Part shown: positions 12,816 through 60,426 of the stretch, in pieces
Position numbering within the stretch: the first letter of the stretch is position 1
Layout of the letters: the number at the start of each line of letters is the position of its first letter
Assembly (NCBI GenBank): GCA_947588685.1
Contig: CANPYM010000003.1
Coordinates: 5,587 to 69,586, forward strand
Length of the DNA: 64,000 nucleotides
DNA from: an uncultured Bacilli bacterium
Lineage (GTDB): Bacteria > Bacillota_I > Bacilli_A > RF39 > UBA660
Direction: 5' to 3'
Made by a program: the position numbers and the translations under genes
Notes under the pieces: generated by a model
Databases searched by the model: none
What the model was told of the DNA's origin: nothing
The model's input: the letters and a program-made list of their open reading frames with translations, nothing else

Positions 12816-12946
12816 AATGTCCTCCCTTCGCCTATATCTCGTATAGACTTGCTCCGTGTAAAAACCTGATATCGGTCAGTGTTTATATAACAACTTAACC
12901 GGGCGTATCAGCAACCTCACACATCAATGCACGCCACACATAATCC

Positions 12947-34470: not shown

Positions 34471-34905
34471 CTACTTTATCATTTCTTTTAAAATATAATC
34501 CATCGTAATTTTAATATCCGGAAAGCAATCGATATGATCAAGTTCTTCTCTAGTAAACCATCTAATATCTGTACTTTCTTCAATATTAAGAGTTGGATTT
34601 GTATCATTATTAGGAATAGCAGCATAAATAATATCAACGTGCATCTCACCATTACTATGACGATTCTTTTGGATACCTAAAGGACGGATAAAATCTTCTT
34701 CACGAGGGAAATGTTCACCTAACAAAGTTACTTTTAAACCGGTCTCTTCATAGGCCTCCCTTAAGGCACACTCCTCAGGAGTTTCATCTAATTCAATATG
34801 GCCTCCTGGTTGCGTCCAACGATGATTTTTACGATGCATAATTAGTAAAATACGTTTATCCACTGGATTTATAATAAAAACAGAGGCACAAAAATGTCTT
34901 GCCAT
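34471..34905 (-). CDS. NUDIX hydrolase
   Basis: 144 aa. Nudix box GGHIELDETPEECALREAYEETGL. Confidence 0.88.
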   Translation of the reverse strand: MARHFCASVFIINPVDKRILLIMHRKNHRWTQPGGHIELDETPEECALREAYEETGLKVTLLGEHFPREEDFIRPLGIQKNRHSNGEMHVDIIYAAIPNNDTNPTLNIEESTDIRWFTREELDHIDCFPDIKITMDYILKEMIK

Positions 34906-34946
34906 ACTATCACCATTTTGATTATAACAAAAAAAGACATTCCTGT

Positions 34947-35696
34947 CTATTCAAGAATGTCAAGTCCTTGTATGTTCTCATTATCTTTATAAATTGTTAC
35001 CTTCTCACTTTCATCTAAAGTACATAGTAAGATATCCTTAACATTATTACACCCTAAAACTTTAAGCTGTTTTAAAAGCCAATTAGCATCTTTATGCATT
35101 AAAGACAAATTCTTGTCCATAATATGTCCATCGATGATGACATTACCAACTAATACTTCTTTATCAGGCTTTATTTTCATATCGCTAGGACTTAATGGTT
35201 TATATAAGGCTTTCGGTAGGAAACTCATCTCGCCATTTACTTCCATAATGCCGTAAGCGATATTGGAAATATCAAAGTAGCCTTTAATACGACATTCTTC
35301 TAATAGTTCATTAATATCAAGATGTGCTTTACGCATATTATCTCTTAAGATTTTACCATTTTGAATAATGATGGTTGGGGTTCCCATAAAAAGGCGACGC
35401 ATAAAAATGCTTTTCATCGTTAACCATGAAACTAAATAGGCGACTAGTCCAAATAAGATAACGGCAAATATGCCATTTATTTCTGGTGATTCAGTGTTGA
35501 TGGTCATTTCTGCAGCAAAGTTACCAATCGAAATACCAATAACATAGTCAAATAAGCTTAATTCGGACACTTGTTTTTTACCCAATAATTTAGTAACAAT
35601 AAAAAGAGTAAATAAACTAATTAAAGCCCGATAAGTAACCGTTCCAAGGGTTGAAAAATCCATAATATCACCAATAATATTATGGATTTTAATCAT
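34947..35696 (-). CDS. DUF421 (YetF-like) membrane protein
   Basis: LGKKQVSELSLFDYVIGISIGNFAA and the C-terminal YetF-type domain. The start may instead be ATG 35663 (MDFSTLG). Confidence 0.78.
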   Translation of the reverse strand: MIKIHNIIGDIMDFSTLGTVTYRALISLFTLFIVTKLLGKKQVSELSLFDYVIGISIGNFAAEMTINTESPEINGIFAVILFGLVAYLVSWLTMKSIFMRRLFMGTPTIIIQNGKILRDNMRKAHLDINELLEECRIKGYFDISNIAYGIMEVNGEMSFLPKALYKPLSPSDMKIKPDKEVLVGNVIIDGHIMDKNLSLMHKDANWLLKQLKVLGCNNVKDILLCTLDESEKVTIYKDNENIQGLDILE

Positions 35697-35949: not shown

Positions 35950-36055
35950 CTTCTTCGCTCCTTCCGCCATGACTTTGATAAGTCATAGAAAACTAATTCC
36001 TACCTAGTTTATCAAATTATTTTATAATTTGCAAGTATTTAAGAGGTATTTTACA

Positions 36056-46288: not shown

Positions 46289-47258
46289 CTTTTATTTCAC
46301 CTAGCACTTTCTTTAAAGCTTTCTCTAATGCTTTGATAGTCGTATTTTCGACTTGAACAGCGGCCGTATTGGTGTGACCACCACCGCCTAAACGTTTCAT
46401 GACTTCACAGACATCAACATCACCAATACTACGTGCACTAATGCCAACTAATTTTTTACCTAATTGGCCAATAGTGAAACTAGCTTTAACACCATCAAAA
46501 TTAAGTAACTCTTCACTTATTTCAGCTAACTCTTCTGGGGTTGTGGATGTCGCATAAAGAAGACAGATAGCCATATCTTTATCATAGATATAACTACTCT
46601 TAATATAATCGGCCTTTCTTAAAAACTCATCTTTACTTTCTTTTAAAAGGTTTTGTTTAACAATTGGATCAGCACCTAAAGAGATGAGATAAGCAGCTGC
46701 TTCAAAAGTTTTCTCCGTTATTTTGACGTTAAAACCATTCGTATCAATTTCCATACCAGCAAGCATAATAGAGGCTACCACTGGACTAATAGGAATACTC
46801 GTATTTTTACTATAAAAGGCAATTAATTCAACAACACTTGATAAAGATGAATCAATATAAAAAATCTCTGTTTCCCGAATATAATTACCCATCTTAATAT
46901 GATGATCTAAAACAACCTTATCAGATATTTCATCAACCAATTTAGGACAAACAATCCGCTCTTGTTGATGTACATCTAAGACAACTAATAACGTTTTATC
47001 ACTAACTAACTTACTATAGTTCTTCTCACTTACATAATTAAAGTTAGGAACTAATGATAAAGCTTGCTTAACGGTATTGTTATTTTCATCACTATCTGGA
47101 TTGATAAAAATATATGTCTTTTTACCCATTGCATTAAAAATAGAACTTAAGCCTAAACTTGATCCTAAAGCATCAAGATCAGGATTTTTATGACTAGCAA
47201 TAATAATTTTGTTATAGTCTTTAACTAACTCCGTTAAACGTCCAAATAAACTTTCCAT
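46269..47258 (-). CDS. DHH/DHHA1 family phosphoesterase (short form, no sensor domains)
   Basis: 329 aa. DHH motif VLDHH and DHHA1 motif GGGGH. Its last 20 nt overlap rplI. Confidence 0.85.
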
Positions 47259-47322
47259 AGGCCCTCCTTAATCACTTAATATTATACTATAAAATTTATC
47301 ATTCCACAAACATAACCAACAT

Positions 47323-47350
47323 AAAAAAAGAAAACATCAAGTTTTCTTTT
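47323..47350 (-). terminator. Rho-independent terminator of the giant adhesin gene
   Basis: AGAAAAC-ttgat-GTTTTCT followed by T6 on the minus strand. Confidence 0.75.
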
Positions 47351-47393
47351 CATTTGATAAAAGCAGGCACGATTTTAATCATTTGATTAATAT

Positions 47394-50300
47394 CTAACAC
47401 TTACTCTTTAGAAATTTTCTACATAGAAGTATACCGCTTAAAAGAGTGATTAAAGCCATCTCAAAAATAATTATAAACTTCTTTATTTGATCTCCAGTTA
47501 ATGGGATTTCAATATTTCTTTTATTTGTTATAGTTACGACAATATCATCATTAACTATTCCTTCATTGTCGGTATAAGTCGTTTGATATTTATCTTGATT
47601 AGCTTCTTCTTCAATTACCTCATATAAAGTATCATAAGGTATATCTTCTATAACAATTTTATCGCCACCTTTTAAGGTAATTGTTCCTTCATATGTTTCT
47701 TCATCATCTGTTGGCGTAAAATTAATTATGCCATCTTCATCAAGACCAGTATATGCATACGCTCCTTTAAATGGGGCATCTTTATCTGGTTTTAAAGTAA
47801 TTTTAAAGGTCCACTCTCTTTCGGATTCAACATTAGTTCCTTCTAGTTTTTTCTCAATACTGATACTATGCTTTGAATAATTTTTATTACTAAACTTAAC
47901 TAATGGAGCATCACCATTTAAGATTCCTTTAGTGTTTTCCGTAGTAATAGTTACATAGTCGTCTTGATTAGCTTCTTCTTCGGTTACTTCATATTCCGTA
48001 CCTTCTGGCAAATCCTTTATTTCTATTTTTTCATTATGTTTTAATTTTATAGTAGCCTCATTATAACCATCTTTTTCTACGACATCGATTGTTCCTTCTT
48101 GAAGTTCTTCAACCTCTTCAACTTCTTCAGTTTCAATATCATCTTGAGCAACTTTCTTCGTCAAAATATAGGCATATTTTTTATCTAATTTTTTGATACT
48201 TGGCGCTACAAGCTTTATTTTAAACGTCCACTCTTTTTCTTTATTGCCTAAATTACCAAATACTTCTTTACTAATGATAATATTGTGTTTTGATAATTTT
48301 GTATTCTTATATGATACTTTTACATCATCATTTAATATGCCATCTTCATCAGTTACATGAGTTATATATTCGTCTTGATTAGCTTCTTTTTCTCTAACAC
48401 GGTAAGTCGTCTTTTCTGGCAAACCATTAATAGTAACTGTTTGATTATGTTTTAAAGTAATTGTTCCAACACTACTACCGTCACTTTGTTTTGCAAATGC
48501 AATTAGACCTGTTTTAGATCCATCATATAAATATTCATCTAATAATGTTATATGATCATCCGGTGTTAAAGTTATTTCAAAAGTCCATTCTTTATTCTTA
48601 TCTCCGGCTCCACCGGCTACTTCTTTAGATATTGTTAAAGAATGTTTTGATGGCTTTTTATTATTGTACTTAACCATAAATGTATCAGTATCAATAAGTG
48701 TGCCTTTTTCTTGGCCTGTTGTCCAAGTAACATATCCATCAGTATTAGCTTCTTCTTCTACCACTTCATACTGCGTTCCTTGTGGCAAATTATTAATTGT
48801 CACTGATTCACCATGTTTTAGTGTTACATGGGCACTACTTGTACCATCACTATTATGTTGTAACTTTATATATGCATCATTTGATGGCACTATTTCAGAT
48901 ACAAAATTACCACTCGTAATTGGATAGCTATCCGATAGTGTAACACCCTCTTGAGGAGTAAACTTAACTATAAAATTCCAAACCTTGTCTTGATCGCCAT
49001 CACTACCAAGGACTTCTTTAGAAATTGTTAAACTATGTTCCGATAATTTGATATTGTTAAAGGAAATACTAGGATTATCTTTTCCATACGTCAAAGTACC
49101 TTCAACATCGCCTGTTACCCGAGTTGTATATCCATCAGTATTAGCTTCTTCTTCTTCAACTTTATACTTTGTTTCTTCTGGTAAACCTTTAATTGTTACC
49201 GTATCATTATGTTTTAGTAATACTTCTCCGGTGTAAGTTCCATCTGTATTACTAGTGAATGATATCTTTCCACTCTTAGTTCCATCAAATTGATATTCTT
49301 TATCTAAAATGACATACTCTAAAGGCTTTAAGATAATTTTAAAGGTCCATTCTTTTTCTTCATCAGCCCAAGCACCGGTTACTTTTTTAGAAATAGTTAT
49401 ATCGTGCTTACTTAATTTCGTATTAGTAAAGCGTACCGTTTCAAGATCTTTAGTTAATTCTCCTTCGGTATTAAGCGTTGCCATCGTATAATATTTTTCT
49501 TGGTTAGCCTCTACCTCTTCAACTTTATATTTTGTTCTTTCTGGAATGTTTTCAATTGTTACACTTTCACCATGTTTTAATTTAATAGTTCCTGTATAAC
49601 TATCTCCTTGTTTCGTTAAATGTAAATCTCCATCAGCATGATCAGTCACACCATTAGCAGCATGACCGCCTACATAATGATAAGTCGTATCAAATATAAC
49701 ATCTTCCGCAGGCATAAAGGTAACTTTAAAGGTCCATTCTTTTTCTTTATCGCCAGCACCGCCAGTTACAATTTTTTCTAATTTTAATTGATGACGGGAA
49801 TATTTTATATTTGTAAATTTAACATTAACACTTGGTTCATCTTTTAATAATCCTGTTTCATTATTTTTTAAAGTTATATAACCATCTTGGCTAGCATCTT
49901 TTTCCACGATTTCATAACTTGTACCTTCAGGAATATTTTTAATTGTCACACTTTCATTATGTTTTAGACTAATAGTTCCTGTATAACTTCCATCGTGATT
50001 ATCGGTAAGTTCCATCATTCCATCTTTGCTTCCAAGATAAGCATAACTTTTAGCAAATGGAATATTCTCTTGTGGGGTGAGAGTAAGATTGAATACCCAT
50101 TCTTTTTCTTGATCGCCCCAACTACCTAACACTTCTTTTGATAAAACAATATCATGTTTAGAGTATTTAGCATTTTCAAACGTAACACTAGTCTCATTAT
50201 CTACTAATGTTCCTTTAGCATTAACAGCCGTTGTTACATAATCATCACGATTAGCTAAAGTTTCCGTAACTTCATATTGCGTATTTTGCGGTATACCTTT

Positions 50301-53300
50301 AAGTGTTATTTTTTCACCATGCTTCAAAGTAACACTACCTGTATAGTTACCACTAGGTTGTTTCATCAAAGAGATACTACCAGTCTCATCTTCACCAGTT
50401 GCTTTATGTTTTAAAGTTTCATAACTTTCTTCTAATGTAACATTAACACTAGGAGTTAAAGAAATATCAAATGTCCATTCCTTTTCTTGATCAGCTAAAG
50501 CTCCGACAACATTTTTTTGAATCGTCAAATCAACCGGAGCATAGAAAGTATTAATGTAGTCAACTTCATCGAAGTAATTATCGTTAACTTGACCGATTAC
50601 CTTCGTACCTTCGATTGTGGCCGTATCTTTTTCCGCTAAATGGATACGATCAAAGAAATATCCTTCGCGGTGTTCAGGCTCGGTAAGAAGTTCTTCGATT
50701 TCATATGTTGAGTCGCTATTTAATCCGGAGAACATTAAGCCTTCATTATTCTTTAATGTAATATGAGCAACATTAACTTCTTGATTTTTCCAATCATCAT
50801 CGGTCCAACCTTCAGGCTTATCTCCTGGCTTTTTATCGTCACTATACCCAAAATATACTTTTTGGGTTAAAAAGGCTGTTTGGGTTGCATAAGGTGATGA
50901 TAATTCACTAGCGCCATATGAATATGGATTTAGATGAGCGATAACAAATTCATCTAATGAATCATATCCAGAAGTTGTTCCTTTCCATGTACCATTTTCA
51001 ACCTCAATAACAGGGATTAGATAAGCTTTCTTTATCCAGAAATCCAATGATCCAAGGGTATGTTCATCGTCATATTTTTTATATTTATTTAAATCGTTCT
51101 TTAAGCTACTACTTATCGCATCAGGATTTTCAACATAAGTGGTCATACCTGATAATGTTAATTCAACATAATCTTCACTATCTGGTGCTTGATATAGCCT
51201 AAAGACATTTTCATCACTGACACTTTTGGCTTTATTAGTTCCAATATAAACATAATAACTTCGGCCATTATTTTTACGATAAACAGTTAAATCATTATTA
51301 GCGTTTTGTAAAAATCCTCTATTGTCAGTCAAAATATCTATGGTTTTTAAACGAAGTTGCCACTCATTACTATAAGGATTTTTGTACATTTTTAAAGCTT
51401 CAAAATCGCCTTCATGGTCATCTAACTTAACACTAAAATTAAACTCTTTATTATTATCAATTTTTTGCTTACCAACCTCATTAGTTTCTACTTCTTTAGT
51501 CATAAATAACAAAGAATCGTTTACCTCAAGGCGACCATTATTTCCTAGATAAGAATTAATGATAATATTACTATCATTAGAAGTTGTTCCTGTAGTCGCA
51601 CTAATGGTTGGTAGGTAATAATTATAAGCCGTGCTTGTTCGGTTAGTTGTTTTTGGTCTTAAACTTTGAGCCATATCACCAACACGTAAACCACCTGGGC
51701 GTGTTGCAATTACCCAATTATCACCACTAGGTTTATCTTTTCCTTGTTCATATTGAACCCATGTGTCATTTACTTCATCATACCAAGCTAAGTAGTTTCC
51801 TGCCTCAATACTTCCACCAGCTATTCCTGAACCAAATTCTTTACCTAATCTTGATACAGCAACATGAACAAGGTCCTTTCTACCTGGCAAGTAATAATCA
51901 AGTATAACATAGTACCATTTATCAGGACTTAATGTTTGAGCATCAGTTATTTTTTGATGAGTAGCTTTAAAGACATTTAACTCATCATCCGTAAGTAGTG
52001 GGACATCTTTATATGTTCCATTAGTTTCAAGGTCACCATCATCAGCACCTAAATTGTATAAAGGTAGCGGATTTTGATACATATAGAAGCGATTCGTTTC
52101 ATTTGGTGAGAAAGATAAGACAGCATCGCCTCTAGTTCTTTCAGCGCTTGTGTCTGTAACATAATCTTTATATAGCGTGTTACTATAATAGTTAGAATAG
52201 AAATAAACAACATCGCCAATCTTATTTTTTTGTAGATATTCTGGAGAAATTTTGGCCATATCTACATTTAAGCCATCATCCGTAAAAATAGAATCTTGTA
52301 AGCCCACACCATAGAAAAGTCTAAATGGTGTCGTTATCGTTTTATTACCTAAATTAGTTGTGTATGATGAGACAAAGCCGTCTGGCCCTATTGTAATATT
52401 TGCTACTTCAATAGGTAAAGCACTTACTGGAATATTGACATAAATAGCTCGATCAAAGCCTAAATCAATAGCTGCATCATTATTTTCATCTTCAAAATTT
52501 TCAGTGTCTTCGACCCATATCCGAATATCACTTAATTTATATTTGATCTTTGTATCGTTATAACATGGATTATGAACTTCGTCATTTCTGCTATCTTCTA
52601 TAAAGCGATACAAAGTATAGATAGTGTTTCTTTGCTGATTGGTCATGCTTCCCTCTTCTAAAAGATTTGGAACGTACTTTCGAACAGTTTCACTATCAGC
52701 ATAATAAGTATCACCATTATCCCAGCTACCGCTAGTCCCTAAAAATTCGCCATCTTTATTATACCAACCCATCTCAAAAGGTAATGATAAATCTTCACTA
52801 TCATGACTTGGCCCACGATGCTTAATATTAAAATTATAATCGTATACAGCTGTCTTTGTAATACCATGAATTTTTCCAAAAAGAAGTAAACCCATGTCAT
52901 ATGTTTCACCACTAACGGTAATTGCCTTATTCTTGACATCCATATATTGTCCCAGTGGATCCATAAAAGTCATTGAATCTTCGATACCAATATCATTAAT
53001 ACCACTAATGGGCTCGAAAGCACTAGAAACAATATCTTCAACGATGGCATCAAATGTTTCAGCAATCTTATCTGCTGCTTCTTCTTTACTAGATGCATAA
53101 TAAGATTTAGTTACATAGTCATATTCTAAATCAGCATTACTTAATCCGTAAGGATTATTGGCTGTATCACCAGGATCTAAGTTATCAAATGATACATCTT
53201 TTCTTTCTGATACAAAATAAGCATTAGAATGGTTGTGTCCTATTGGAACAGTTGCATCATATTCAACACCATTAACAGTAGCTCTTCCATCTTTCATATC

Positions 53301-55010
53301 ATCCCAAAGGCCTTTTGCTTCATCGTAAATGACATATTTATTTATTTTTCCCCGATCATCATAGGAATTACTATCATTTTTGAATTCATCATAAGCATTA
53401 ATAGCATCAATAATGGCTGATATTATTTCATAACCAACCGTATATGGTTCATAAACAATATCATCATCTTTTAAATTGTTTACATCAGCATCTTGTTTGA
53501 TATAACCCTTTTCTTTTAACCAATCAGTATTAAAATAATCGTTGGGGTTCATAAGTACTGAACTAGTATTTATAGTATAATTAGCTGTACCACTAAACCA
53601 TTCTTCTGGATCAGGTAGTTTTACTTCTTCTGGATTATTCATATCAACAGAAACTGTATAAAATTTACAATTTCCTCCAAACTTTTTTTCTACCTGAGCT
53701 CTCATATATGAACCATTTAAAATTGTTGTTAATATAATCGCTGCTTGTGAAGATCTTACCTCATTAGCAAACTCTTTTAACTTTTGTTCACCTACAGCAC
53801 CAGGGTTAGAGTCTTTAATATGGCCATCTGTTAATGTTCCATCTCCATAACCAATTTGTTCTAATGTTGGAACTCCATCTTTTTCTATTAAATCAATGTA
53901 CATATTCCAATCCCATGTCCAGGTTCCTTGTGGATCTTCAAACGCCTTGATATAACTAGCTTTTTTATTACCTCGATCATTTGTAAAGCCCATAGCTTGT
54001 AGGGTAGGATTAGACCATGATCCCTCCAACATATCGGTAGCTGCACCATCAGATAATACAACAACGGAAGGAATATAATTAAAGGTAATTCCCGCAACCT
54101 TAACTTTAGTTTCCTCTTGTAATAAAGCTTTAAATGCCGCATAAGTACCAGCATTAATATTCGTTGTTCCATTACGATATGTATCATATCTTTTTATACC
54201 ATTATCAGTAAGTCGTATATTCTCATCAACTTTAAAAGTATCATTGACATACCTTTTATCAACAAAAACAAAGCCACCAGCGGTATTAGCATGACTTGGA
54301 TCTTTGATAGGTTCACTAAACTGGGTGTAATCAGTAACCCCTGCTTCTACCCAGCCGGCATCAAGATAATGATATGGTTGTTCTTCATCATCACTTACCT
54401 CATAATGCCCCATTGGAACAATAGTTGTTGCTGTATTACAATCATCATCTTTTACTCCATTTTTACCATTGTTACCAAAAAGAACAACAGACACTTCATT
54501 AAAAGCGCCAGCGCGCATTAACTTATCAATAGATTCGTTAACAGCGCTAACAGTTTTATCCATACGGGTTTTAGACCAATCTGTTTTATTATTAGAATAC
54601 ATCGAACCAGAATTATCTATAACAATAACGGTTTTAGTTGGTGGTAAACCTATCCAAGCCTGACTAGATCCTAAAGCTGAGAAAACATTTAAAAAATCAG
54701 TATTAAGTTTGACTTTACCGTCATATCCGTCAGTGGCCATATCTAAAGTTAAATCATTAGTAAAAACAGACTTATCAGACCAAATACGGCCAGCATATCT
54801 TGAACCATCCGCATCACTAAGTAAAAGATTTTGATATGAATCCATCGTACTAGGATCAGAAATACGATTAAAATTAGATGAACTATAAGATTTGTTATTG
54901 ATAAATCCCATCATCGTCAATAAGCTTTTATTACCAAAGCTTATAACAGCTAAAGAAATACATATCGTTAACACCAATAATTTTAAAGATATTTTTTTAA
55001 TGTTATTCAT
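47394..55010 (-). CDS. Giant cell-wall-anchored surface protein: signal peptide, vWA domain, long unassigned middle region, 8 CnaB/SpaA-like repeats, IPLTG sorting signal
   Basis: 2538 aa. Signal peptide KISLKLLVLTICISLAVISFG. MIDAS motif VIDNSGSM (aa 130-137). Eight ~121-aa repeats carry KEWTF. The C-terminus reads IPLTGD + hydrophobic helix + RKFLKSKC; IPLTG was verified in the DNA at 47493..47507. Confidence 0.9.
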   Translation of the reverse strand: MNNIKKISLKLLVLTICISLAVISFGNKSLLTMMGFINNKSYSSSNFNRISDPSTMDSYQNLLLSDADGSRYAGRIWSDKSVFTNDLTLDMATDGYDGKVKLNTDFLNVFSALGSSQAWIGLPPTKTVIVIDNSGSMYSNNKTDWSKTRMDKTVSAVNESIDKLMRAGAFNEVSVVLFGNNGKNGVKDDDCNTATTIVPMGHYEVSDDEEQPYHYLDAGWVEAGVTDYTQFSEPIKDPSHANTAGGFVFVDKRYVNDTFKVDENIRLTDNGIKRYDTYRNGTTNINAGTYAAFKALLQEETKVKVAGITFNYIPSVVVLSDGAATDMLEGSWSNPTLQAMGFTNDRGNKKASYIKAFEDPQGTWTWDWNMYIDLIEKDGVPTLEQIGYGDGTLTDGHIKDSNPGAVGEQKLKEFANEVRSSQAAIILTTILNGSYMRAQVEKKFGGNCKFYTVSVDMNNPEEVKLPDPEEWFSGTANYTINTSSVLMNPNDYFNTDWLKEKGYIKQDADVNNLKDDDIVYEPYTVGYEIISAIIDAINAYDEFKNDSNSYDDRGKINKYVIYDEAKGLWDDMKDGRATVNGVEYDATVPIGHNHSNAYFVSERKDVSFDNLDPGDTANNPYGLSNADLEYDYVTKSYYASSKEEAADKIAETFDAIVEDIVSSAFEPISGINDIGIEDSMTFMDPLGQYMDVKNKAITVSGETYDMGLLLFGKIHGITKTAVYDYNFNIKHRGPSHDSEDLSLPFEMGWYNKDGEFLGTSGSWDNGDTYYADSETVRKYVPNLLEEGSMTNQQRNTIYTLYRFIEDSRNDEVHNPCYNDTKIKYKLSDIRIWVEDTENFEDENNDAAIDLGFDRAIYVNIPVSALPIEVANITIGPDGFVSSYTTNLGNKTITTPFRLFYGVGLQDSIFTDDGLNVDMAKISPEYLQKNKIGDVVYFYSNYYSNTLYKDYVTDTSAERTRGDAVLSFSPNETNRFYMYQNPLPLYNLGADDGDLETNGTYKDVPLLTDDELNVFKATHQKITDAQTLSPDKWYYVILDYYLPGRKDLVHVAVSRLGKEFGSGIAGGSIEAGNYLAWYDEVNDTWVQYEQGKDKPSGDNWVIATRPGGLRVGDMAQSLRPKTTNRTSTAYNYYLPTISATTGTTSNDSNIIINSYLGNNGRLEVNDSLLFMTKEVETNEVGKQKIDNNKEFNFSVKLDDHEGDFEALKMYKNPYSNEWQLRLKTIDILTDNRGFLQNANNDLTVYRKNNGRSYYVYIGTNKAKSVSDENVFRLYQAPDSEDYVELTLSGMTTYVENPDAISSSLKNDLNKYKKYDDEHTLGSLDFWIKKAYLIPVIEVENGTWKGTTSGYDSLDEFVIAHLNPYSYGASELSSPYATQTAFLTQKVYFGYSDDKKPGDKPEGWTDDDWKNQEVNVAHITLKNNEGLMFSGLNSDSTYEIEELLTEPEHREGYFFDRIHLAEKDTATIEGTKVIGQVNDNYFDEVDYINTFYAPVDLTIQKNVVGALADQEKEWTFDISLTPSVNVTLEESYETLKHKATGEDETGSISLMKQPSGNYTGSVTLKHGEKITLKGIPQNTQYEVTETLANRDDYVTTAVNAKGTLVDNETSVTFENAKYSKHDIVLSKEVLGSWGDQEKEWVFNLTLTPQENIPFAKSYAYLGSKDGMMELTDNHDGSYTGTISLKHNESVTIKNIPEGTSYEIVEKDASQDGYITLKNNETGLLKDEPSVNVKFTNIKYSRHQLKLEKIVTGGAGDKEKEWTFKVTFMPAEDVIFDTTYHYVGGHAANGVTDHADGDLHLTKQGDSYTGTIKLKHGESVTIENIPERTKYKVEEVEANQEKYYTMATLNTEGELTKDLETVRFTNTKLSKHDITISKKVTGAWADEEKEWTFKIILKPLEYVILDKEYQFDGTKSGKISFTSNTDGTYTGEVLLKHNDTVTIKGLPEETKYKVEEEEANTDGYTTRVTGDVEGTLTYGKDNPSISFNNIKLSEHSLTISKEVLGSDGDQDKVWNFIVKFTPQEGVTLSDSYPITSGNFVSEIVPSNDAYIKLQHNSDGTSSAHVTLKHGESVTINNLPQGTQYEVVEEEANTDGYVTWTTGQEKGTLIDTDTFMVKYNNKKPSKHSLTISKEVAGGAGDKNKEWTFEITLTPDDHITLLDEYLYDGSKTGLIAFAKQSDGSSVGTITLKHNQTVTINGLPEKTTYRVREKEANQDEYITHVTDEDGILNDDVKVSYKNTKLSKHNIIISKEVFGNLGNKEKEWTFKIKLVAPSIKKLDKKYAYILTKKVAQDDIETEEVEEVEELQEGTIDVVEKDGYNEATIKLKHNEKIEIKDLPEGTEYEVTEEEANQDDYVTITTENTKGILNGDAPLVKFSNKNYSKHSISIEKKLEGTNVESEREWTFKITLKPDKDAPFKGAYAYTGLDEDGIINFTPTDDEETYEGTITLKGGDKIVIEDIPYDTLYEVIEEEANQDKYQTTYTDNEGIVNDDIVVTITNKRNIEIPLTGDQIKKFIIIFEMALITLLSGILLCRKFLKSKC
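47510..50535 (-). repeat. Eight tandem ~365-bp coding repeats (CnaB/SpaA-like domains)
   Basis: Recurrent protein blocks (L/I)SKEVxG..(D/E)KEWTFxIxLxP...YTGTIxLKHxExVTIxxLPExTxYEVxEEEANxDGY...VxFxNxK. The repeats are diverged at the DNA level. Confidence 0.85.
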
Positions 55011-55102
55011 AACTTCTCCTACTTTTCTTAATAATTTTTTTTATATTTAAAATAGATTCAAATATTTGGACATTACTATCTTTATCTATCCTTTTCTAAA
55101 TC

Positions 55103-55131
55103 ATTATATCAACAAAAAAAAAAAAAAACAA
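55103..55131 (-). promoter_or_regulatory. Sigma-A promoter of the adhesin gene: TTGTTT-N17-TATAAT with TGa extended -10; 12 of the 17 spacer nt are T
   Basis: Read base by base on the minus strand: TTG + T15 + GTTGA + TATAAT. The -35 is 55131..55126, the spacer 55125..55109, and the -10 55108..55103. Confidence 0.65.
55114..55128 (-). repeat. Homopolymeric T15 tract (A15 on the plus strand)
   Basis: The longest homopolymer I noticed in the window. It lies inside the promoter spacer and directly follows the whiA terminator stem. Confidence 0.98.
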
Positions 55132-55163
55132 GTAACTTTTTTGCGAGATATATTAGTTACTTG
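55114..55163 (-). terminator. Putative whiA terminator (8-bp stem, 19-nt loop, T15 tail)
   Basis: CAAGTAAC (contains the whiA stop) ... GTTACTTG followed by T15. The loop is unusually large, so the hairpin is weak. Confidence 0.5.
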
Positions 55164-56080
55164 TTTCTTTCTTTTTTATTTCTAATTCTTTCAGCTAACG
55201 CTTTTATTTTATTAAAGCGATGATACAAACCAGATTTAGTAATTTTGGTATCGGTTTCAATACTGATGATTTCACTTAATTCAACTAACGAAGCTTCGGG
55301 GTATTTTAAACGGTAAGTGGCAACTAATCTTTCTTTTTCATCTAAAAGATCTAGTCCGCCTTCTGCTTCAATTACCTCGATATCTCTTACCTGTTTCGTC
55401 GCTGTTTCAATAATTTTATCGACATTGGCTTGTTCACAATTATTAAGGCGATTCGTCATATTCTTGTGATCCCTATAGATACGAATATCTTCAAAGTAGA
55501 ATAACGCATTAATAGCGTTCATCATTCGAAGAAAATCCCCTATTTTTTCGGCTTCTTTAACATAGATCATATACTTATTATCCCGTTTTAAAACTTTGCT
55601 ATTTAAATAGTATTCATTTAATAACTTACTAATAAACTTAGCATATTCTAAGTTATCAACAAAAAACTCTAAATGATAACGTGACTTCTTGGGGTCATTA
55701 ATACTACCACAGGCTATAAATAATCCTCTTAAATAAGCTCGTTTCGATAAATCATCATCAAGAATATAATCTCTTGGAATATTCGTATCAAGACTTAAAT
55801 CATTGATAATATCTTTAACTTTACGGGTTATCTCTAAAATATAGAGATAACTTTTCATATAGTTATAACCACGCCTTACGGTTATTTTAGGAGAAACATC
55901 ATACATTTCTTTAATTGATGAAAAAACATATCTAGCGACACTAGCATTTTCCGTAGTTATTTTAATAGTATCAGTAATAATGGCACTATTTCTTAAAATA
56001 ACAGATAATTCAGCAATCATTTCCGTGCGTTCATGGTTTAATTTACTTACTTCATTTTTAATATCACTTGTAAATGACAT
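55157..56080 (-). CDS. whiA: DNA-binding protein WhiA
   Basis: 307 aa. MSFTSDIKNEVSKL start, LAGLIDADG-like middle and a C-terminal HTH. Confidence 0.93.
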   Translation of the reverse strand: MSFTSDIKNEVSKLNHERTEMIAELSVILRNSAIITDTIKITTENASVARYVFSSIKEMYDVSPKITVRRGYNYMKSYLYILEITRKVKDIINDLSLDTNIPRDYILDDDLSKRAYLRGLFIACGSINDPKKSRYHLEFFVDNLEYAKFISKLLNEYYLNSKVLKRDNKYMIYVKEAEKIGDFLRMMNAINALFYFEDIRIYRDHKNMTNRLNNCEQANVDKIIETATKQVRDIEVIEAEGGLDLLDEKERLVATYRLKYPEASLVELSEIISIETDTKITKSGLYHRFNKIKALAERIRNKKERNK

Positions 56081-58280: not shown

Positions 58281-58334
58281 AATTTCTCCTTGATTCATTA
58301 TAACACTATTCTATAGCTATTTCAAATATTCAAA

Positions 58335-60344: not shown

Positions 60345-60426
60345 CTTAATCCTCCTCTCATTGTTGTGCTTATTTTATCACTATTTCTAGTATAAAACAA
60401 GAATGTTAAAAATCCTTTTTGAACAT

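Follow-up and report, generated by a model that had tools for sequence, protein, structure and literature searches.

A pure run of T between whiA and the gene for a 2538-aa surface protein varies in length from 10 to 17 nt among 11 independent assemblies from two related species, with invariant flanks on either side. The tract fills most of the space between the -35 and -10 elements of the predicted promoter of the surface-protein gene, and it is a well-founded candidate for a contingency locus like those of vlp, porA or R28. Simple-sequence homopolymers change length by slipped-strand mispairing. With moderate confidence, we take slippage-driven change of the promoter spacer, and resulting variation in adhesin transcription, as the best explanation of the locus. 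In the 64-kb stretch of DNA analysed here (the window), the tract measures exactly 15 T and is the only A/T homopolymer of at least 9 nt. The expected number of runs of at least 15 nt in the window was 0.005 when the run-length histogram was extrapolated and 0.008 under an iid model, and the T15 tract is beyond chance.

The T tract and the predicted adhesin promoter

Base-by-base reading of the minus strand gave exactly the anatomy described in the original prediction, in which the whiA stop codon lies inside a hairpin stem and is followed by a 19-nt loop, T15, GTTGA and TATAAT (Table 1). The proposed TTGTTT hexamer, the 17-nt spacing at 15 T and the extended -10 TGaTATAAT also agreed with the letters at 55131..55103.

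Table 1. Features around the T tract, in window coordinates
Feature	Position	Strand	Basis
whiA, 307 aa	55157..56080	minus	ORF; Pfam WhiA_N, LAGLIDADG_WhiA, HTH_WhiA
A-rich run AAATAAAAAAGAAAGAAA, coding for the WhiA C-terminus here; able to pair with the T tract	55164..55181	minus	direct reading, fold
Hairpin 5' arm CAAGTAAC	55156..55163	minus	read base by base; all 8 pairs kept in 9 sequences
whiA stop codon TAA, inside the 5' arm	55159..55157	minus	read base by base
Hairpin loop, 19 nt, varying among strains and species	55137..55155	minus	direct reading, alignment
Hairpin 3' arm GTTACTTG; its final TTG is the sole consensus-matching part of the proposed -35	55129..55136	minus	
Proposed -35 TTGTTT, 3/6 against TTGACA	55126..55131	minus	same hexamer and 17-nt spacing at the uvrB promoter
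Pure, uninterrupted T15; hairpin U-tail and most of the proposed -35/-10 spacer	55114..55128	minus	alleles T10-T17 in 11 assemblies
GTTGA	55113..55109	minus	read base by base
Predicted extended -10 TGaTATAAT (TG 55111..55110, TATAAT 55108..55103)	55103..55111	minus	GTTGATATAATGA identical in 11/11 assemblies, both species
Predicted 5' UTR; putative TSS ~55097/55096; AGGAG 55020..55016	55011..55097	minus	not conserved between the two species
Giant surface protein, 2538 aa	47394..55010	minus	ORF, domain matches, C-terminal motif
Terminator-like hairpin and T-run AAAAGAAAAC ttgat GTTTTCTTTT TTT, 3' end of the adhesin cassette	47323..47351	minus	direct reading
Promoter of the DHH-family gene, TTGTGG-17-TATAAT	47281..47309	minus	same promoter directly after whiA in L002

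A consensus promoter scan omitted TTGTTT-17-TGaTATAAT because its -35 element matches at only three of six positions (TTG). Other minus-strand promoters in the window are built in the same manner, with TTGxxx placed 17 nt upstream of TGnTAnAAT; these include the uvrB promoter at 60380 (TTGTTT-17-TGATAAAAT) and a promoter at 58305 (TTGAAA-17-TGTTATAAT), both on the minus strand. The promoter scan found no other promoter-like site on the same strand in the gap between whiA and the ATG of the adhesin gene. Given the recurrence of this design elsewhere in the window and the lack of an alternative site, we infer on good grounds that this is the promoter of the adhesin gene; its TSS, slippage of the tract within populations and any effect on expression are likewise predictions.

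The claim that the downstream gene encodes a giant adhesin was supported, in that a sortase-anchored surface protein lies directly downstream of the tract, its ORF starting at 55010. The protein has an N-terminal signal peptide, a Pfam domain search identified VWA_2, eight copies of DUF7601 and eight of DUF5979, and the C-terminus carries IPLTG, a hydrophobic segment and a basic tail, which together form a sortase-type anchor. The sorting motif is IPLTG, not the canonical LPXTG. The protein is thus anchored to the cell wall in the sortase manner, and 'adhesin' is a fair working label for it. When the N-terminal 400 aa were compared with a database of 5.8 billion proteins, only distant relatives were found, with at most 47% identity. 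No poly-T tract was present upstream of the adhesin homologues L033 and L034 (38% identity for L034), and the region upstream of L034 was ordinary. As this distant homologue lacks the tract, the tract is specific to the lineage and is not a property of the adhesin family.

Tract length among related strains

No record matched the WhiA or the CofD-like protein of the window exactly, and relatives were reached through homologues of the window WhiA and near-identical members of WhiA clusters, which led to contigs of related strains. We also scanned contigs from one genome per species for at least nine T followed by GTTGATATAAT. This analysis revealed 18 matches, two of which contained the homologous element (L007 and L021, from isolates Lapin-004__bin25 and Lapin-032__bin82, each recorded as 'uncultured Bacilli bacterium'); the others were unrelated sites of T9-T11. 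In the JGI metagenome collection, neither the tract plus the -10 element nor the hairpin 5' arm had a match when each was used for a scan, and the lineage is absent from that collection.

The element is carried by two species. Species A, which includes the window, showed 92-98% nucleotide identity across contigs, and in species B the WhiA shares 85% identity with that of the window, while the flanking DNA is 76-78% identical. Four tract alleles were identified among the five strains of species A (T15 in the window, T13 in L001 and L035, T16 in L007 and T12 in L037) and four among the six strains of species B (T16 in L003, L021 and L026, T17 in L004, T10 in L024 and T13 in L025), with T16 the commonest allele. 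The tract was pure T in all 11 independent assemblies despite the 76-78% identity of the flanking genes between the species, and the sequences bordering it, TTACTTG and GTTGATATAATGA, were identical in every assembly. Comparison of the tract across strains, which had been proposed as a check on the original prediction, thus revealed a tract that is not invariant, since its length ranges from 10 to 17 within constant flanks, and this outcome favours the core of the prediction. The strains L003 and L004, obtained from different samples, showed 0 mismatches in 3582 nt, and their sole difference was one T in the tract.

As a control, we examined a further 21 A/T runs, each 6-7 nt long, within shared regions. 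A true change in length was detected in one of these (A7/A8), where it was consistent with clade; three others differed by substitutions and not by length. The A8 run at 55035..55042 on the minus strand, located in the adhesin 5' UTR 70 nt downstream of the tract, was broken by substitutions or an insertion in L001 and L007. Thus, ordinary runs decay while the T tract stays pure, because the A8 run is interrupted in sister strains and all 11 tracts are uninterrupted.

Seven of the 18 contigs that carry the 3' end of whiA stop in the tract or no more than 35 nt from it; these are L023, L027, L028, L029 and L031, together with L030 and L036, which end in the hairpin 5' arm. These breaks reflect either heterogeneity within the population or technical dropout. 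As a practical warning, the tract breaks metagenome assemblies or is mis-sized in them.

The adhesin cassette and the hairpin at its border

In the closer relative L002 (GCA_947632495.1), whose WhiA is 89% identical, the adhesin gene, the hairpin and the tract are all missing. Here the DHH-family gene follows 70 nt after whiA and has the promoter TTGTAG-17-TATAAT (L002:4915-4986 compared with window 47258..55160). In the window, the DHH promoter comes after the terminator-like hairpin that ends the adhesin gene. The adhesin unit is an inserted cassette, because L002 has whiA followed directly by the same DHH promoter, and this promoter marks the predicted 3' boundary of the cassette. As read from the letters, the order within the cassette is A-run, hairpin and T(n), then the extended -10 promoter, the 5' UTR, the adhesin gene and a terminator. 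Relatives differ in whether they carry the whole cassette.

The hairpin sits at the 3' end of whiA in the window and in species B, but where the adhesin gene is missing, whiA has no such hairpin behind it. In species B, it starts 45 nt past the whiA stop codon, and the overlap of hairpin and stop codon in the window is therefore a local accident. The original description of the T tract as the tail of the whiA terminator is thus not supported, given the separation of the two in the sister species and the missing hairpin where there is no adhesin. By these comparisons the block belongs to the adhesin cassette and not to whiA.

Conservation between the two species is limited to the A-run, the hairpin arms, the tract and GTTGATATAATGA. 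The loop has diverged, as has the 5' UTR, which measures ~90 nt in the window species and ~180 nt in species B. This pattern points to the stretch between the A-run and GTTGATATAATGA, both included, as the functional control region, as opposed to the DNA proximal to the ATG. The A-run precedes the hairpin in both species, as AAATAAAAAAGAAAGAAA in the window and as the non-coding AAAAAAATAAAA in species B. The 5' UTR of the window gave no significant fold and no Rfam match. At the locus as a whole, Rfam returned no family and only sub-threshold, miRNA-like matches to the A/U hairpin, and a riboswitch or leader reading of the locus was rejected on this account. A separate feature was observed in the adhesin 5' UTR of species B (L003:5064-5195), where an inverted repeat of ~28 bp (GTTAAATTTTTTAAATGGGCTCTATAGG ... 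CTTATAGAGTCCATTTAAAAAATTTAGC) surrounds ~70 nt. This repeat has a folding energy of -43 kcal/mol (z = -5.4), is invariant in six strains and is absent from the shorter UTR of the window; it could represent an inserted MITE-like element or a structured regulatory leader.

The hairpin next to the tract consists of 8 bp, 3 of them G-C pairs, and a 19-nt loop, and it was not called by a simple terminator scan. Together with flanking A/U pairs it folds at -10.8 kcal/mol in the window (z = -5.2) and at -8.5 in species B, in both cases better than shuffled sequences, and pairing of the upstream A-rich run with the T-run gives a fold of -21 kcal/mol. The arms were paired in 100% of cells in 9 sequences and include one compensatory change, from C:G to U:A, between the species; as a single evolutionary event, this covariation is weak evidence. 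The hairpin and U-run plausibly form a weak terminator or insulator, and this terminator-like element may be bidirectional, with the A-run mirroring the T-run in both species. In intrinsic termination, a U-tail of roughly 7-9 nt matters. Slippage had also been predicted to tune the terminator at the same time as the promoter, and this claim is unsupported because even the shortest observed allele leaves 10 U behind the hairpin, more than the length that matters; in addition, the stem is weak and the loop atypically large.

A second overlap of stop codon, hairpin and T-run was observed at 34922..34960 on the minus strand, where the TAG (34949..34947) of ORF 34947..35696 falls inside GACATTC..GAATGTC. 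The hairpin at this site is followed by T7, TGTTATAAT and the ATG of the next gene at 34905. In unrelated genomes, T9 and GTTGATATAAT come after a hairpin (L010:3628-3647), after the 3' end of a tRNA (L005:3391-3410) and after the apparent 3' end of another tRNA (L008:5724-5743). Given the second window site with its T7 and the T9 cases in unrelated genomes, the sharing of a T-run between terminator tail and promoter is ordinary, and a terminator tail fused to an extended -10 is a widespread compact design. The present locus is like these compact overlaps in that a hairpin and T-run abut TGnTATAAT, but the ordinary cases have T6-T9, whereas here the run is T10-T17 and polymorphic in length.

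Predicted consequences of tract length

In the mechanism that we propose, the 60-nt block would serve as the border module at the 5' end of an accessory adhesin cassette placed between whiA and the DHH-family gene. The first part of the block (A-run, hairpin and T-run) would act as a weak, possibly bidirectional, terminator-like insulator, and the second part as a TG-extended promoter of the sigma-A type, TTG..(T)n..GTTGA-TATAAT. Slipped-strand mispairing in the poly-T would change the length of the tract and shift the -35 TTG relative to the extended -10, giving spacers of 12 to 19 nt. The outcome would be heritable, reversible variation in adhesin transcription, high with T14-T16 (spacers of 16-18 nt) and low with T10-T13 and T17. 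The observed alleles correspond to spacers of 12, 14, 15, 15, 15, 17, 18, 18, 18, 18 and 19 nt, and about half of them fall in the functional range of 16-18 nt. A perfect extended -10 can largely replace the -35 element and is less dependent on spacing, as in E. coli and in the '-16 region' promoters of Gram-positive bacteria. Because the extended -10 can substitute for the -35, and the commonest allele is T16 and not T15, graded modulation is expected, and any effect of length would more probably be graded than strictly ON/OFF. The chances that expression depends on tract length in a biologically meaningful way appear evenly balanced.

Several other explanations of the variable tract were considered. 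The length data come from metagenome assemblies with SPAdes-style contig names, in which coverage of 2-6x is stated, and homopolymers this long are error-prone in sequencing and in library PCR. Each species could then have one fixed length, with the apparent alleles produced by slippage during library PCR or sequencing and by assembly at low coverage. The authenticity of homopolymers in short-read data is a documented problem (PMC9187656), and the seven contigs that stop at the tract are also in keeping with a technical origin. However, the difference of up to 6 nt between T10 and T16 at 5x coverage exceeds the usual error of +/-1-2, the 21 shorter runs in the same contigs yielded only the one clade-consistent change in length, and two curated species-representative MAGs also carry T16. 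We therefore regard a purely technical origin as very unlikely. Little should be read into a difference of a single T, artefacts are an unlikely source of differences of 3-6 T, and the T tract is probably hypermutable in vivo. A truly variable tract could still be an expanded terminator tail that drifts neutrally, next to a promoter that relies on the extended -10 alone and is insensitive to length. The recurrence of a hairpin and T-run abutting TGnTATAAT (34922..34960; L005, L008 and L010), the 3/6 match of the -35 element and the 18-nt, not 17-nt, spacer of the commonest allele would all suit such drift. Over the divergence between the species, however, interruptions like those in the A8 run would be expected, and all 11 alleles are pure; a run of 10-17 T far exceeds what termination needs, and other promoters in the window carry TTGxxx 17 nt upstream of an extended -10. 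Weighing these points, we consider neutral drift of the tail unlikely.

If the promoter is independent of its -35 element, the T tract, by its position, separates the core promoter from the upstream A-run. RNA polymerase would then use the extended -10 while its alpha C-terminal domains contact the A-run, and tract length would shift the helical phasing between these elements and make the output multiphasic, by a mechanism documented for H. pylori sabA (PMC4081817). The presence of A-rich runs before the hairpin in both species agrees with this rheostat, but the A-run lies ~60-80 nt upstream of the predicted TSS, beyond the usual position of an UP element, and pairing with the T-run in a bidirectional terminator-like hairpin accounts for it equally well. 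Phasing of the A-run is in our view a live, if improbable, alternative. The inverted repeat was also considered as an operator for a dimeric regulator, with half-sites 27 bp apart from centre to centre; a hairpin with a U-tail, in RNA or DNA, offers a simpler account, and the operator reading is not favoured. A further scheme combines both roles of the T-run, as U-tail and as spacer, in a two-input switch. Short alleles, T10-T13, would shut down the promoter of the adhesin gene itself and keep the insulator, which would leave read-through from the whiA operon as the sole source of adhesin expression, and long alleles would uncouple the two; the arrangement would be kept by selection for mutability in two species. 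WhiA is a regulator of the cell cycle and of division. We give this scheme very little credence.

The preferred reading, slippage-driven change of the promoter spacer, can be compared with known systems of phase-variable transcription. The length of the -35/-10 spacer sets promoter strength at the homopolymers of Neisseria porA and opc and at the TA repeats of Haemophilus influenzae hif. The present locus resembles these in having a repeat between the -35 and -10 elements. They differ in being G/C tracts or dinucleotide repeats within mapped promoters of Gram-negative pathogens, whereas here a poly-T lies in a predicted promoter of Gram-positive type. The principle of control by spacer-length repeats has been restated (PMC9187656). 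In M. hyorhinis, the vlp promoters contain a poly-A tract, according to the summary of Citti and Wise 1995 given in PMC10502178. The likeness to vlp lies in a mononucleotide A/T tract in the promoter of a surface protein, in slippage indels that alter transcription and in a host among the low-G+C Bacillota/Mollicutes. In contrast, vlp is a multigene lipoprotein family of a wall-less pathogen, and the present gene encodes a single sortase-anchored protein of 2538 aa in an uncultured gut commensal. Compared with vlp, the tract also forms the U-tail of a hairpin, the -10 element is a perfect extended one, and switching is predicted from sequence.

The closest case in Bacillota is the T tract in the Spy1336/R28-Spy1337 intergenic region of S. 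pyogenes M28, where the transcript takes one of three states with 9, 10 or 11 T and the alleles of natural strains came from SPAdes assemblies (PMC7098570). The same study describes a tract of 8-15 T upstream of GBS bca (PMC7098570). Both the R28 locus and the present one have a poly-T upstream of a repeat-rich, LPXTG-anchored type of adhesin in Bacillota, with natural differences between alleles, and at R28 changes of one nucleotide in the tract alter transcript levels (PMC7098570). The R28 tract differs in having 8-13 T, mostly 9-10, in lying between divergent genes and in acting with the gene for an AraC-type regulator; here, 10-17 T would form the spacer of the core promoter, and there is no adjacent regulator. 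At H. pylori sabA, a T tract acts as a rheostat that re-phases UP-like elements (PMC4081817). This tract is similarly a variable run of T at an adhesin promoter, with natural alleles of ~9-18 T and graded, multiphasic output, but it borders the -35 element on the upstream side, whereas the present tract follows the TTG and constitutes the predicted spacer.

The features of a contingency locus that are present here are a pure, over-long repeat, length polymorphism among strains with constant flanks and a surface protein as the target; the place of the tract within the promoter is predicted from sequence. To our knowledge, contingency loci have been documented mainly in pathogens, including Neisseria, Haemophilus, Helicobacter, Campylobacter, mycoplasmas and streptococci. 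The present candidate lies in an uncultured commensal Bacilli lineage of the rabbit gut and precedes the gene for a giant accessory adhesin of ~2500 aa. The mechanism itself is known and would not surprise a specialist; what is new is its setting in a commensal, uncultured lineage, and it can be checked in existing read sets. If the proposed mechanism holds, stochastic switching of an adhesin through a promoter homopolymer would also occur in uncultured gut Bacillota, and the length of the tract would serve as a simple metagenomic marker of adhesin state in situ. Elsewhere in the window, Rfam matches at gathering level were obtained for an S10-Clostridia leader (12828..12935, minus strand) and an L31-Firmicutes leader (35958..35988, minus strand), which fit a Bacillota origin of the DNA.
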